Shown one piece after another: positions 51,001 through 56,550 of a stretch of DNA of 56,550 nt (its first letter is position 1; the number at the start of each line of letters is the position of its first letter). The stretch is from a virus (taxonomy: Duplodnaviria; Caudoviricetes), in the IMG/VR virus record IMGVR_UViG_3300036804_000025, positions 1 through 56,550 of that record. The stretch is one strand, 5' to 3'. A program made the position numbers.

Positions 51001-54000
51001 AGCCACGGGAAGCCGCCAACTGTGCGGCGGTCATCTCGGAACTCAGAGCAGCCCCAGCACGGCGACCAGTGGCCCCGGCCTGAGTGATGATGCCGTTACT
51101 GAAGGCCGTCATGGCGGTCTCAGTGCGGGCCATGCCAGCACGGGCACCCTCATTGATGCCACCGCCGATAGCTTCACCAGCTCGACGGCCCATCGTGGCC
51201 GCTTCCTGGTTGGTCCGCTGCAACATGGGACGGAGGTTCACGGAGGCCCTGTCAGCAGCCCTCGTAAAAGCGGTAGCGAAACTCCGTCCGGCCGTCACAC
51301 CGGCCTGATCAAACTGACGAATCAACTGTGCCTGGAATCGATCCAAGGCAGCCTGATTCATCCTAGGACGGACATCTACATAGCCTGTGGCTGTGCGAAT
51401 GCCCGTAGGCTCAGCAGCCATACGAACTCCCTATAGCATTGAATGGATGTTGTTAAGGAAGCTGGCTACCTCACCAGTAGAAGCCAACTTCTTAGGCTCC
51501 TCTTCGGGAAGCACATCACCAGGTCGCGGAACAGGATCCGGGAAAGGAACCTCTCCGGCACCCTCACCAGAGTTAGCCTGAATGAACATCCAGTTCGATA
51601 CCTCTAGGGCATCCGTAACCCTTGCCATAAGATGCTCTTGAGTGCCCCAAGAAAGGGACTCGTCATAAGCCATCGGCAGGGCCGCTTGACCATGCATGTG
51701 CATAAGCCTCTTGGAGAGAACCAGCACCCTGCGTAGGGATACCTTGTTTCGCCACACGTCCAAGAGGTCAACCCCAAAGAACTGTAGAAGGTCTGCTTCT
51801 AGCTCCTCGGGGTACTCACTCATGACATGGGCGACCCACATTAGTTTCCCTCGTCACCGAACCCCGCAGCTTCCGCCACCAGCTCAGCAAACTCCTGGAA
51901 CTCTCGAATGGTCGGGCGGGAAGCCTCAAAGTCTGCCCACTGCTCAGGGCCAAGAATGGCGCTCAGGATCTCGATCTCGTCGCCACCACGGATCGCCTTA
52001 AGAACCTCGAACGGCATATCAAGCTGAGACGGAACCTCGAACTCAACACCCTTGAACTCAAGAGCGGAAGGACCCTCAACGGCCTCCGCCTCCTGAGCCT
52101 CCGCAGCCTTAGCAGCCGTAACCTTGCTTGCAACAGTCTTCTTCGCAGCAGCCATAATTAACCCCAAAAACTAAACATTGATTGAAAGAGAGAGAAGAGA
52201 AGGGGGTGTTTAAAGGCACACCCCTAAAGCCTTAAGTGGAACGCCACTTACGCGGGAACGTCCCCAAACGACACCTTCACAGTAGGCGCAGAGGGCCCAT
52301 TAGGGTTTAGAACACCCTCATCAATCACCACTGCAACCGGAGCCGCAGCCTTAGAACCAGCAGCATTCTTGGCAGTCACAACCACAAAGATGCTGTCACC
52401 TGCGACCGCTGCACCGAAGTTGGCGTCAAGGACATTGGCGTCAATGGCCGTAGCCGTCATAGCACCAGCAGAGGTAATACCCGGATTCACCTCAACAAGG
52501 GAACCCGAGTTAAGCCGGGCCTCAACCTTGAAGGTGTCAGCCGGGCCATACTGGTTGTCAGTGAAACCAGGGTCAGTGATTTCTACATTGATCTGCTTAG
52601 CAAAAGTAGCCATAGGCCACCTTCCCTTTTATCGAACCTGATAGGGAGACTTAGACAGTCTCCGCGTCAACCTGCGGGGCCGCAGGAGCCTTAACCGTCT
52701 CCGGAGGCGTGGTGCCTTCCTCGGCGCCGGACATGTCCTTCGTGGTGAGAAGCTTCGCCAGAGTGCCGTTCTCGTCCAGGGCGTCAACGGTGAGGCCGTA
52801 CTTCTGGTTCTCAGTCCGCTGAAGGGTGATCGAGTCACGGTCCGAAATGATCGCGTGCGGGACAACCAGACGGTTCTTAATGTCGGAGTCGAACCACTCG
52901 ACCACAAGGCAGATCTGGGAAAGCTCCGGGTTGGACTCAATGTCCAGACCAAAGACGCCATCCTCAATCTCAGTCCACGACGTACCGAAGTAGGTCTCGG
53001 TAACGGTCGGGTTGACCTCCATAAGGGTCGCCTTCACCTGAAGGGAAGCCTTAGAGACCGAATACATGATCGGGGTGGCGGACTGCCATGCCTCAATCTC
53101 CTGCGTCTCAATGCTGGGGGTCAGCTCGACGCCATCCGTGGTGGCATAGCCCATTTCATGCCAGTCGTCCTTGCCGACCTTCAGATCCTTATTCGGGTCC
53201 AGAACATCCGGGTCACTGAAGATGTTCTTGTTGGGGTTGTACTTCTTAACGAGAATGCGCCCGTCCGGAGCGAAGCGGACGTTATCAGCCTTGTTACCAG
53301 CCATTTAGGAATTCCTTACTTAGATAACTACTTGCCTATCTCGTAGACATAGATGGACAAGCTGTGAATGAAACGAGACTCACGAGACGTTTCATCGGGG
53401 AAAGAAGAAGGTGCATCGACCTCTTGCACGTCAGCCACATAGGCGGCCTTCACGACATGGCAGGGGAGCTTTTCAAGCAGATACTCACGGACGGCATAAG
53501 CAAGTCCAGCAGCCTCACGCTTAGTCGGCCCATAGGTGGACACCGTGAAGTCGAATCGGTCCATGCGATCCCGGACGGTTCGTTCACCGCCGTGCACGTC
53601 ACAGATGATTGCCCTCTGGCCCGTCTCACGGCCGATAGCGTCGGCGGAGATGAATACCCCGTCGAACTCGTCCAGGCCGACGAGATAGCCCACCACAACG
53701 CTTGCGGGATCAATCCTCACGAAGACCGCCCCCTCATCTGGGCAGCAGCCGTCTTAAGGCCCTTCTCAAGCAGATGCAGACCTTCATGTTCACGGCCCGC
53801 ACGGTCACGGAAGCCGTACTCAACGAAGTGCCAGTTGACGGCACGAACACGAAGTTCGGCTTCCCACCCGTAACCCCTAAGCGTCTTGTTGATCTCAAGA
53901 CCAGCGGCATACGATCCCTTGTGGGGAAAGGTGCCACCAGAAGCGGGACCAGGACCACGCTTAGGGACGTTCTTGTAAACGAAGTTGTACGCGATCTGCA

Positions 54001-56550
54001 TAGTCTCCGTGACGAGCTTTTCCATCTCTGGAGTGGCACAAGCCTCGAACTTAAAGGTGGGGTCGATGATGACTTCAGAAGCCATTAGTGCCTCACCTTC
54101 CAGGCAACAGCCTTCACGTGCTTGATGCTGCCGAAGAACCAGCGTTCCGGCTTACCGTCGATCTGATAGAACTCGTCCTCGTAGACGAGCTGCATCGTGG
54201 CGTCCAGCTCGACCGTGACGGGGAAATAGACGTTCAACCACTCCTGGTCCGTATCCCGCTCTACAAGAGCTTCAGTGGCCCTGTAGGGCTGTACGGAAGC
54301 CTTGCCAGTCCAGAACGGCTCAGGCTCGACCTCTCGGTGTTGCCCGTACTCATCACGAACCAGGAAGGTCTTATGGACTGCTACCGGATCCTTGAAGTAG
54401 TACAGGTTCACCAACGCACCACCTTTGCCGACAGGTAGCGAGTGCGGTACTTCTTCAACAGAGACCGGCTCGACGCGGAAAGGCTGTAGTTGGTGGAGCC
54501 ATAGTTGACTTCAAGGTCACCGACCTTTTCAGACTTGATACCGGGCGTCTGGACAGACCAGTAAGAAACCTCGGCAGCAGCGATAGCCTGAATGTCGCCA
54601 GGAACCTCCTTGTACCCATACGAGAGCCGTATAGCCACCTTCGGGTTATGGGAGAACTGTTCCGGCATCCAAGGGCTAGACCGCCACAGATAGTCGCGCT
54701 GCATCATCCAGTCCTGTACAGGGACCTTCACCTCTTCACCAGAGGTCATGTCGCTGAACCAGACTTCCTTGACCATGCCTACCGGCTTGTAGTACTGGGG
54801 CATAGGGATGAAATGCTCGTTGCGAATGTCGAGATAGATAACCTCGTCATCGTGCCACTGGAAGTCCACACCACAGATAGAAGTGATCATGCCGGATACG
54901 GCAATAATGAAAGCCTCTACCTGCTTCTTCTCTTCCTCTGAATACGTGGAAGGGTCGCGGCCCTGTTGAGCCGCGACCTCTTCAAACGTCGTCAAGGAGG
55001 CCATAGGTACCTCCCTGTGGAATTACTTGGTGGCCGTCTTAACCTGCGGCGCGGCCGGAGCCTTCAGGGCCTCGCCACCCTCGCCAACAAGCTCCGGGTT
55101 ACCGAGAACGATCATCTGCTCAGGGCGAACAATCTTCGCGCCAAAGATCATGCGACCCTTAACGGCGTCGGTGAACTTGCGCTCCGGACGGAACGACTCA
55201 AGGTCCGACAGGGTGTGGGCGAAGGAGACAGCCTCACGGGTCGTCAGGACACCGTAGATGCCATTAGCACCCGACTTCGGCTCACGGACGAACGTGGCGT
55301 CCTTGTAAGCGTTAGCGTCGTCCAGGTGGCGACCAATGGTGTTCGAGACGATAACCGGCAGGCCAAGAATCGTGCCGACAACACCAGTCCGCATAATCGA
55401 CGTGCCGTCACCCATGTGACCGGCGTCAATGAACTTCGGGTCCTCAAGCAGGTCTGCGTACTCCTCCGGACCAACAACCAGAACACGGCCCGCAGTCGAG
55501 ACGTTACGGATGTTGAGAACGGTCTGAGCACGAAGGATCTGGCCGTAGTGGTTCGCACTGTCCGTCGCGTCAACCAGGGAAACCTTGCCGTGCAGCGGAA
55601 TGTCACCCCAGTTCAGGTCCTTACCCTGAAGACCAGACTTGATCGTGGACACAATGTGCGAGTCAATGTTCTCAGCAAGGTTACGAGCCGACTGGCCGGT
55701 GAGCTGAGACATAAGGGCAATGCCCTTCGTCTGGACCTGGTGGAGGTTATCGACCTCGAAGCCCCACGTACGGGCCTGGTCCACACGCAGCTCAATGAAG
55801 TCATTGTTCAGACGGTCGAAGTGGTCGATCTCCGCATACGCAGCACCGGAGTTAACACCACCCTTACCATCCAGAGTGCCGCCATTGATCTTGATCGAGT
55901 CAAGAACGTGCGGGACCTTGACGACATCACCGGGGCCGCGAAGCTCACCCTCATAGGTGCGGTTGGTCAGGCCACCAAAGACAAGGCCGGACTCAAGGTC
56001 GGTCAGAAGCCGGGAAGCCCAAAGCTCCGGAATGAAAGTGCCGTTGATGCCAGAGCCAGCAGCAAAGGTGTGGTTCGGGGCCTGCTTAGCAAAGCCGCCG
56101 TCGTAGTTGTTCCCGTTGGGGAGCTGGGGATTAGCCATAGTGTTTCCTCTTAGTTAGAACCGTTCAGAAGGGCTTCAAGATGGCCCTTCTCATGCGCCTC
56201 ATTGATCTGTGCGGGAGACAAGCGCTTGAGGTCATCCCGCGTGTACTGGACGGGTCCAGAACCACCCTGCGGACCAAGGCCAAGCTGACTGGCCGACGGA
56301 TAGGCAGGAGCCTTCGGGGCCTGATAGGCCGCGAAGGAATTCACGAAGGCAGAAATGGCATCCGAGTTAGGGCGGCCATCGTCACCAACCAGACGGGACG
56401 TGTCGATAAAGCCCGTGACACCCTCGGGGAGAGCCACACCAGCCTTAGCGGCCTCGGCGGTAATCTGGGCAAAAGTAAGGTCCTTACCGAACTCCGCAAC
56501 AGCGGAATTCCGACCCTCAGCCCGAGCGGCCTCAAGGGCCTTCTCCTGGT

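Follow-up and report, generated by a model that had tools for sequence, protein, structure and literature searches.

A C-terminal tag shared by the capsid and tail-tube proteins of a probable Streptomyces phage, and a free FN3-like protein as its possible partner

The virus record IMGVR_UViG_3300036804_000025 (Duplodnaviria; Caudoviricetes), analysed here over its full length of 56,550 bp and referred to as the window, raises the question of why two unrelated structural proteins should end in the same short sequence. The major capsid protein (MCP; 55023..56138, minus strand, 371 aa) and the tail-tube or major tail protein (MTP; 52651..53304, minus strand, 217 aa) both carry the octamer KAPAAPQV close to their C-termini. 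Directly downstream of the MTP gene, before the genes of the tail assembly chaperones, stands a small gene (52248..52613, minus strand) that encodes a protein of 121 aa. The original prediction described this protein as a circularly permuted FN3 domain to which the octamers on head and tail could dock, and whose own tail could recruit further copies. The structural half of this reading is supported by modelling, while docking and chaining are plausible and face real counter-indications.

Both copies of the tag end exactly five residues short of the C-terminus. In the MCP, which ends in ...GEALKAPAAPQVKTATK, the tag (55041..55064, minus strand) is followed by KTATK and the stop codon. In the MTP, which ends in ...PETVKAPAAPQVDAETV, the tag (52669..52692, minus strand) is preceded by the linker GTTPPETV and followed by DAETV and the stop codon. 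The DNA reads AAG GCT CCG GCC GCG CCG CAG GTT in the MCP gene (55064..55041) and AAG GCT CCT GCG GCC CCG CAG GTT in the MTP gene (52692..52669). The two copies are identical at 21 of 24 bases, and the three differences all fall on synonymous third positions. Both the presence of the octamer on the two proteins and its three synonymous differences had been claimed at the outset, and both are confirmed. The number of shared 8-mers was counted for pairs of non-overlapping open reading frames (ORFs), taken from 280 six-frame ORFs of at least 60 aa. It amounts to 31, of which 29 are due to a 127-bp terminal repeat and one joins the ORFs 16651..16887 and 44188..44643 (both plus strand), which lie outside the called genes. 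The last of them is KAPAAPQV. The tag observation is real and non-random.

The MCP is recognised as an HK97-fold major capsid protein by its profile matches to the major head protein family PHROG 267 (E 2.3e-40, residues 23-345) and to Pfam Phage_capsid_4 (PF25209; E 4e-8, residues 141-340, 34.3 bits with a cut-off of 27). Its tblastn alignments to phage MCPs stop at residue 344-349. The MTP is a member of Pfam Phage_TTP_17 (PF25681; E 1.2e-22, residues 3-185, 80.9 bits with the same cut-off of 27), and it also matches PHROG 476 (E 2.9e-25) and PHROG 117. Since the family profiles stop at about residue 345 in the MCP and about residue 185 in the MTP, the tags form the end of C-terminal extensions, which comprise ~25 residues behind the HK97-type core of the former and ~30 residues behind the family core of the latter.

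The only close relatives of the window are two proviruses, L002 and L003, with a completeness by CheckV of 92% and 100%, respectively. The recorded source of their proteins is Streptomyces strains, and for this reason the host of the window is probably Streptomyces. In comparison with the window, the MCP and MTP are 89% and 85% identical in L002, and 69% and 62% identical in L003. The MCP tail reads ...EALAPAAPSVKAVAAQKSSTKK in L002 and, over its last 14 residues, ...GVEVPAEPEVPKKA in L003, while the MTP tails read ...GTVMAPAAPQVTAKAR and ...GKLPAQPKIKADFSVGKK. The core P-A-x-P-x-(V/I) is present in all six tails of the three genomes, in the forms (MCP/MTP) PAAPQV/PAAPQV in the window, PAAPSV/PAAPQV in L002 and PAEPEV/PAQPKI in L003, and nearly all residues flanking it differ. 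In the three-genome alignments, P361, A362, P364 and V366 of the MCP and P207, A208 and P210 of the MTP are invariant. The synonymous divergence (dS) between the genomes, from 0.6 to about 1 for the MTP and MCP, makes the three synonymous differences between the tags a sign of old, separately kept copies and not of recent copying. Judged from these alignments, the tag is under selection at the protein level, because its core has been kept on both proteins in all three genomes while its flanks diverged and despite such a dS. In this respect the original prediction is supported.

A known setting in which capsid and tail-tube proteins share their C-terminal endings is virion O-glycosylation, of which such endings are reportedly a signature in the mycobacteriophages Che8, Corndog and Myrna (a finding ascribed to Freeman et al. 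2023). If it applied to the window, the tags would serve as sugar acceptor sites at the C-termini of capsid and tail tube. The Che8 MCP ends in ...KTGS and its MTP in ...SDGS, the window MCP is distantly related (~26% identical) to cluster-F-type mycobacteriophage MCPs, and Thr residues flank the window tag. However, the conserved positions of the tag are P, A, P and V/I and offer no Ser or Thr as acceptor, and the last 14 residues of the L003 MCP contain neither of the two. A six-frame search limited to the families PF00535 and PF00534 matched none of the three genomes (window, L002 and L003), whereas the positive control, Che8, gave two PF00535 places near 56-58 kb and no PF00534 place. In addition, a Pfam scan of 39 window ORFs found no glycosyltransferase family. 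Glycosylation of this type is therefore very improbable for the window. The virion O-glycosylation of Che8-type mycobacteriophages is the subject of the work by Freeman et al. 2023 that is cited in PMC10877033.

The 121-aa gene is real and independently translated. It has its own ATG with a strong Shine-Dalgarno sequence, GGGAAGGTGG, just upstream, and it starts 37 nt past the MTP stop in a different frame. The ratio of nonsynonymous to synonymous substitution rates (dN/dS), 0.18 against L002 and 0.27 against L003, indicates purifying selection. As only five codons are open upstream of the ATG, all of them after the MTP stop, an N-terminal extension of the protein is impossible. These features bear directly on the idea that the MTP is joined to a downstream immunoglobulin-like (Ig-like) ORF by frameshifting or readthrough. 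Listeria phages have paired frameshift extensions of their capsid and tail genes. A relative of the window MTP also lends the idea some support: in an Embleya prophage (L012:9193-10091; L012 = L035), an IPT-like Ig domain is divided between a 237-aa MTP, which holds its first half, and a 60-aa ORF with the second half, which begins 2 nt past the stop, in the -1 frame and just downstream of GGA AAG. Such an arrangement may reflect either a fusion by -1 frameshifting or a domain that is split. For the window, recoding is nevertheless close to refuted. The 121-aa frame is open over those five codons only and lies wholly past the MTP stop, a gap of 37 nt with a strong Shine-Dalgarno sequence separates the two genes, and on the capsid side the gene directly after the MCP is that of the adaptor. 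The offset between the MTP and 121-aa frames is +1 in the window, +2 in L002 and +1 in L003, and this variation excludes a recoding fusion for practical purposes. The original prediction had assumed display without frameshift fusion, and the window indeed offers no route to one.

The family of the 121-aa protein is very rare. Among 1.84 billion representatives it comes to three clusters, and phmmer, run exhaustively over them (E <= 0.001), gave three matches, in which the relatives are P0002 (80% identical) and P0003 (47% identical); the third, a TPR protein matched via a low-complexity stretch, was rejected as spurious. A word-indexed search returned two proteins. Searches of viral contigs with the 121-aa protein, P0003 and the alignments A1 and A2 led to the same two records, plus two MTP matches of 25% identity. 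No relative was found by blastn and tblastn in the phage collection, by searching genome contigs with the protein, by searching metagenome contigs with A1 and A2, or by searching 401 Streptomycetaceae genomes with A1. The protein matched no family in Pfam, PHROG or NCBIfam, and a weak Pfam Bbp16 match below the cut-off (E 0.062) was disregarded. The best match in BFVD, an uncharacterised siphovirus protein of 106 aa (E 3.6e-4), is uninformative. A PDB sequence search with A1 returned arginase rows only (E 0.17 or weaker), which are attributed to chance and give no support to an FN3 assignment. The protein contains no second domain for virion binding.

Structure prediction provides the main indication of what the protein may be. 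With a 4-row alignment, AF2 produced a beta-sandwich with a predicted local distance difference test score (pLDDT) of 77 and a predicted template modelling score (pTM) of 0.72; a run without alignment (pLDDT 50) was not used. The seven strands of the model span residues 8-12, 27-34, 40-47, 54-57, 74-83, 86-96 and 111-114, while residues 59-66 form a short helix. In a structural comparison with VIA-align, 30 of the 50 matches listed were titled FN3 or FnIII, with Z 6.4-7.2 and a root-mean-square deviation (rmsd) of 2.2-3.3 Å in those rows, and the best match had Z 7.2 and rmsd 2.6 over 80 aligned residues; by the tool's own warning, a Z of about 7 (< 8) is a common background level. The best FN3 rows of Foldseek against pdb had E about 2e-2 and TM 0.44-0.53, and the ESM Atlas model of the protein (pTM 0.61) has FN3-type neighbours too.

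The alignments with single-domain FN3 targets run from model residue 3/4 to about 100 and, on the target side, from residue ~17 to the end (8oq9_A 17..105, 8oty_A 17..102, 2h45_A 17..95). Because they begin near residue 17 and reach the target end, the first model strand (8-12) would correspond to FN3 strand B and the sixth to strand G. The F-G hairpin (...SIFVVVTAKNAAGSKAAAPVAVVI) is one that we take, by eye, to be FN3-like. The canonical FN3 order with an N-terminal strand A is not found in the protein. Its C-terminal tail, PSAPTVKVSF (52266..52295, minus strand; residues 107-116), has the same pattern as the tags, and the modelled beta-strand within it (111-114) lies outside the sequential FN3 alignments. 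From the topology of the model, this strand would occupy the A position. The equivalent tails are PSAPTVKVSW in L002 and PATAEVEAEF in L003, so that the tag-like pattern is present in the small protein of all three genomes (PSAPTV, PSAPTV, PATAEV). In L003, moreover, the MTP tail P-K-I-K-A-D-F and the small-protein tail A-E-V-E-A-E-F share hydrophobic-x-A-x-F. The claim that the gene encodes FN3 strands B to G followed by a C-terminal A strand is thus supported by the predicted model and finds no counterpart in sequence profiles. Pfam fn3 (PF00041) was matched neither by the 121-aa protein (E <= 0.1) nor by P0002 and P0003 (E <= 1), and a six-frame fn3 search of the whole record at E <= 1 gave nothing. 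With a Z of about 7, close to background, and an unmatched fn3 profile, the predicted domain is called FN3-like here and is not placed in the fn3 family.

The reading preferred here, to which a probability of roughly 35% is assigned, is that the tags consist of a linker and a first-strand stub on which the FN3-like domain docks in trans. Starting from what is observed, namely the tag, its conservation, the independent translation of the small gene and the permuted model, we infer the exposure of the tails, the docking, its stoichiometry and its function. The C-terminal extensions of the MCP and MTP, of about 25-30 residues, would be surface-exposed linkers, each ending in a short first strand with P-A-x-P followed by alternating V-x-small-x-small. 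The 121-aa gene would provide the remaining sandwich, strands B to G, together with its own tag-like C-terminal strand. The tags on head and tail would then bind the 121-aa protein non-covalently, either by beta-strand complementation or by edge-strand augmentation, at or beside the slot that is filled by its own tail in the free protein. In keeping with this, that tail shares its pattern with the tags and is a strand in the model. In this way, head and tail would show one Ig-like domain, whose role would probably be to adhere weakly to polymers of the host surface, as is the case for fused Ig-like domains of other actinophages. Two published systems provide context for such a display. With regard to exposure, the Jabs preprint (10.64898/2026.07.24.740622) describes an MCP, reported there to match that of Che8 in a Foldseek search, whose C-terminal extension forms a turret at the hexon centres. 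With regard to function, the mycobacterial surface is labelled by the Ig-like domains that mycobacteriophage Douge carries on its capsid and tube (PMC13033339).

More distant relatives allow the tails to be placed in a wider setting. Relatives of the MTP were found in 65 of the 401 Streptomycetaceae genomes, and their C-terminal forms were read in the best 14 of these 65 loci. In L027-L030, L032 and L033, a G-x-TPP linker (G-x-TPP-x-P-F) joins the MTP to a conserved fused domain of some 100 residues (...WTARVTATG...CTVVTG). L031 has a fused IPT-like Ig domain, the Embleya prophage described above has half of such a domain followed by the 60-aa ORF, and L034 and L037-L039 have a short Pro-rich tail. 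The L036 locus is broken by stop codons and gave no listed MTP reading frame. The G-x-TPP linker is common to the window MTP and the domain-fused MTPs of its relatives. In an MTP of 55% identity, P0013, the stretch ...ETPQVKAGGATAINGREF... (including ETPQVKAGG) is the start of an IPT-like domain, comprising its A-B strands. As far as sequence position can tell, the window tail GTTPPETV-KAPAAPQV is the equivalent of the linker and first strand of a C-terminal display domain.

The same relatives can be read differently. The tags may be linker stubs without any docking, either remnants of Ig-like modules that were swapped, fused or lost, or plain exposed Pro-rich tails, with the 121-aa protein being self-contained, permuted, and attached elsewhere or absent from the virion. 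This is only slightly less probable than docking. Relatives are found at every stage, from fused domains (L027-L033) through the split IPT-like domain (L012) to the short Pro-rich tails, and MCP tails such as ...TTPPATK, ...KAPTAP and ...TTPATT are found in outgroups. The one-chain model, which is complemented in cis, points in the same direction. So does the rejection of the 121-aa gene as the detached end of the fused MTP domain of the relatives (hhalign of A1, probability 0.5%), by which the gene is more than a piece broken off this MTP. On the other hand, a neutral relic should not retain P, A, P and V/I in three genomes, on a pair of unrelated proteins, while the flanks change, and an identical octamer with three synonymous differences would be unexpected. 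The presence of the same pattern in the tail of the small protein would also be left without explanation.

The joint occurrence of tag and gene was compared between the clade and its outgroups. Both are present in all three clade genomes. In the 19 outgroup loci with both tails read (Success, Ponzi, Ibantik, P318, L014, L024, L012 and 12 Streptomycetaceae prophages), the gene was found in none, and P-A-x-P-x-V/I on both proteins was likewise found in none. The next-nearest phages, Success, Ponzi and Ibantik, all of Streptomyces, have the MTP directly before the chaperones, and P-A-x-P-x-V tails are absent from them. The expected co-occurrence is therefore seen (3/3 against 0/19), but only within a single clade. 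A tag that persists in relatives lacking the gene had been named beforehand as evidence against docking; in the 19 loci the exact core on both proteins does not persist in this way, while similar Pro-rich tails do occur in relatives.

A parallel case is found in P318, a Thermobifida phage, and in two prophages, L014 and L024, in which a free-standing Big_2 gene of 75-88 aa lies directly after the MCP. In P318 it is orf22 (L011:2714-2980), annotated as 'Ig-like domain-containing protein', and in the prophages it is found at L014:7574-7840 and L024:4995-5222. The encoded protein matches Pfam Big_2 (E 2.3e-8). As the match in L014 covers only positions 18-75 of 79, the first strands are missing from this copy. 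The C-terminal motif of the P318 and L014 copies resembles the start of Big_2, which gives them the look of a circular permutation. The MCP and MTP of these genomes end in ...DPNSP/...SVPSP (P318), ...VPAPSP/...SVPSP (L014) and ...VPAPTP/...VTPSP (L024). As in the window, a small gene in the head-tail module encodes an Ig-like domain that starts after the first strands, and the MCP and MTP end alike; the P318 and L014 proteins, like that of the window, end in a first-strand-like motif. In two lineages, therefore, a free Ig-like domain that begins past strand A occurs together with like endings on head and tail proteins. The two cases differ in several respects: the proteins of the P318 group belong to the Pfam family Big_2, whereas the window protein matches no family; their gene follows the MCP and not the MTP; and their tags, ...P(S/T)P, stand at the very end, with the L024 copy lacking the C-terminal strand.

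The recurrence of alike endings also suggests that the shared tag could be a recognition site for another partner, such as a modifying enzyme that is not a classical glycosyltransferase, a host factor, or a step of head/tail assembly or quality control. The likeness between MCP and MTP recurs with different endings, namely ...PSP in P318 and L014, ...PTP/...PSP in L024, ...PKP in G203 and ...TP in Ibantik, and the last two have no free Ig-like gene beside the MCP or MTP. Furthermore, eight window ORFs of at least 200 aa have no family match. However, no candidate enzyme was identified, and the sole lineage-specific gene that travels with the tag is the 121-aa gene. The likeness of the tag to the strand of the 121-aa protein itself would also stay unexplained, and a partner of this kind is unlikely.

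Docking of the FN3-like domain in trans, as preferred above, has to be weighed against a number of observations that speak against it. Some of these come from the small protein. Its likeness to FN3 comes from a predicted model and a Z of about 7, a common background level, and the fn3 profile is matched neither by it nor by P0002 and P0003. The one-chain model closes its sheet in cis with its own tail (residues 101-120 at pLDDT ~70), and the circularly permuted domain may therefore be complete in itself, without need of a donor. A self-complemented monomer had been proposed as the outcome that would refute docking; it appears here in a one-chain prediction, which can hardly yield anything other than cis closure. 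Prediction of a complex between MTP residues 176-217 and the 121-aa protein gave 0.62, 0.01 and 0.00 in separate runs, which lacked folded controls and are evidence neither way. The tags add further objections. By inspection, the own tail of the 121-aa protein has more hydrophobic inward-facing residues (V, V, F) than the tags (V, T, T for the MCP and V, A, T for the MTP), and from these residues the displacement of that tail by a tag looks unfavourable. In the L003 MCP tail, Pro stands right after Val (PEVPKKA), which leaves almost no room for a strand.

The comparative evidence carries its own objections. The clade consists of three related genomes only, too few for a covariation test, and they count as one evolutionary event, which limits the weight of the co-occurrence. 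Similar tails are also found where the gene is absent. In G203, the MTP (L039) ends in ...IIPAAPKP and the MCP (L057) in ...TEAPPKP without an adjoining Ig-like gene, and the MCP of L030/L066 ends in ...AIKAPTAP, again without such a gene. In Ibantik (L022), MCP (...ATATATP) and MTP (...VMTDTP) are alike without an adjoining Ig-like gene. Many MCP and MTP of the group have Pro as their last residue. Since relatives that lack the gene also have tails rich in Pro and Ala, part of the likeness between the tails may be a family-wide linker habit. Finally, the MCP and MTP tails of L024 are alike, yet its Big_2 copy has no C-terminal strand.

The original prediction went one step further, to pilus-like strand donation. 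In this version, extended here to the actinophages of this group, the tags would prime a free Ig subunit that lacks the first strand, and its C-terminal strand would recruit further copies into non-covalent chains, on the head as well as on the tail. In the extended form, each lineage would have its own matching tag and Ig family, with P-A-x-P-x-V accompanying the FN3-like protein and ...P(S/T)P accompanying Big_2 in the P318 group. The weaker hydrophobicity of the tags and the Pro-rich tails in relatives without the gene count against the chain as well, and it is distinctly improbable.

The window is a complete virus record with an exact terminal direct repeat of 127 bp (1..127 and 56424..56550), and the scaffold gene spans the record ends. 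The late genes, all encoded on the minus strand, extend from about 56.5 kb to 36 kb, beginning with the scaffold, followed by the MCP. Directly after the MCP comes the adaptor (54408..55004), followed by the head-closure gene (54085..54414), a gene without assignment (53717..54085) and the tail terminator (53328..53720), all on the minus strand, and then by the MTP and the 121-aa gene. The G-like (51841..52167) and T-like (51431..51841) tail assembly chaperones, with chaperone matches to PHROG 10551 (E 5.6e-19) and 5813 (E 7.9e-18), and the 1887-aa tape measure (45758..51421) continue on the same strand. With the chaperones placed at 51431..52167, the 121-aa gene is an extra gene between them and the MTP. 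The tape measure contains a motif of about 37 residues three times, at residues 828, 1132 and 1417, with the pattern GG-x-x-PGY-x-PG-x-D ... GE-x-(V/I)(M/L)(R/K)P(E/Q).

Other genes of the record were noted in passing. A tail-region protein of 488 aa (39897..41363, minus strand) matches poly-gamma-glutamate hydrolase (PF05908, E 1.2e-51) in its N-terminal domain; it may be a depolymerase and may hint at a host surface polymer. An HNH endonuclease gene (419..1036, minus strand) is flanked by the scaffold and portal genes. The terminase ORF (2572..3741, minus strand) has only 389 aa and a profile match to the nuclease domain alone, for which reason the ATPase part may be encoded separately. A serine integrase (22871..24508, minus strand) indicates a temperate lifestyle. 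On the plus strand, a class II-type ribonucleotide reductase (14175..16274), ThyX (19915..20610) and the ArdA antirestriction protein (30106..30657) are encoded. The G+C content of the window is about 56-57% throughout; that of Streptomyces chromosomes is well above this value.

Ig-like domains are common on phage heads and tails, where they are thought to keep virions near their hosts, and Fraser et al. 2006 are said to have given a general survey of them. To our knowledge, the phage Ig-like domains described are always either covalently linked to a structural protein or part of a decoration protein that brings a binding domain of its own. A literature search of open-access text found no paper on strand complementation between the tails of capsid or tail proteins and a free Ig-like protein. 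If docking is true, a separately encoded Ig-like domain would be held by one short tag on structural proteins that are unrelated to each other. Such attachment would be new in principle, and phage display could naturally use the two parts as a 'tag and catcher' pair. Even without docking, the recurrent C-terminal likeness of MCP and MTP within single genomes, across actinophage lineages, calls for an explanation.

Besides the Big_2 genes of the P318 group, four known systems are closest to the proposed arrangement. In chaperone-usher pili, Ig-like subunits are held together by donor-strand complementation and exchange. As in the window protein, an Ig-like subunit without one terminal strand has a strand-like extension at its other terminus. 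However, pilins lack strand G and carry an N-terminal extension, whereas the window protein lacks strand A and carries a C-terminal one. The window clade is also without chaperone or usher, its model closes in cis, and a polymer is only proposed. The glycosylated mycobacteriophages Che8, Corndog and Myrna resemble the window in the shared C-terminal ending of capsid and tail-tube proteins and in a distantly related MCP. They differ from it in that PF00535 and PF00534 are matched in none of the three clade genomes and that the tag core consists of Pro, Ala and Val and not of Ser or Thr.

Mycobacteriophage Douge (PMC13033339) has MCP-Ig-like and tail-tube protein (TTP)-Ig-like domains. The same kind of module would be placed on head and tube via a C-terminal linker in the window, likely for weak binding of host glycans, and relatives of the window MTP carry fused domains as well. 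In contrast to the Douge type, the module of the window is encoded separately and has a start codon of its own, the MCP and MTP keep a tag of about 8-13 residues, and any attachment would be non-covalent. Decoration proteins form the last group. T5 pb10 (PMC5292684) and T4 Hoc (PMC10385173) are described as having a dedicated capsid-binding domain and as decorating the head only. As with pb10 and Hoc, a separately encoded protein would place Ig-like domains on the capsid surface. Unlike them, the 121-aa protein has a single domain, and its putative attachment site, the tag, is carried by both head and tail.

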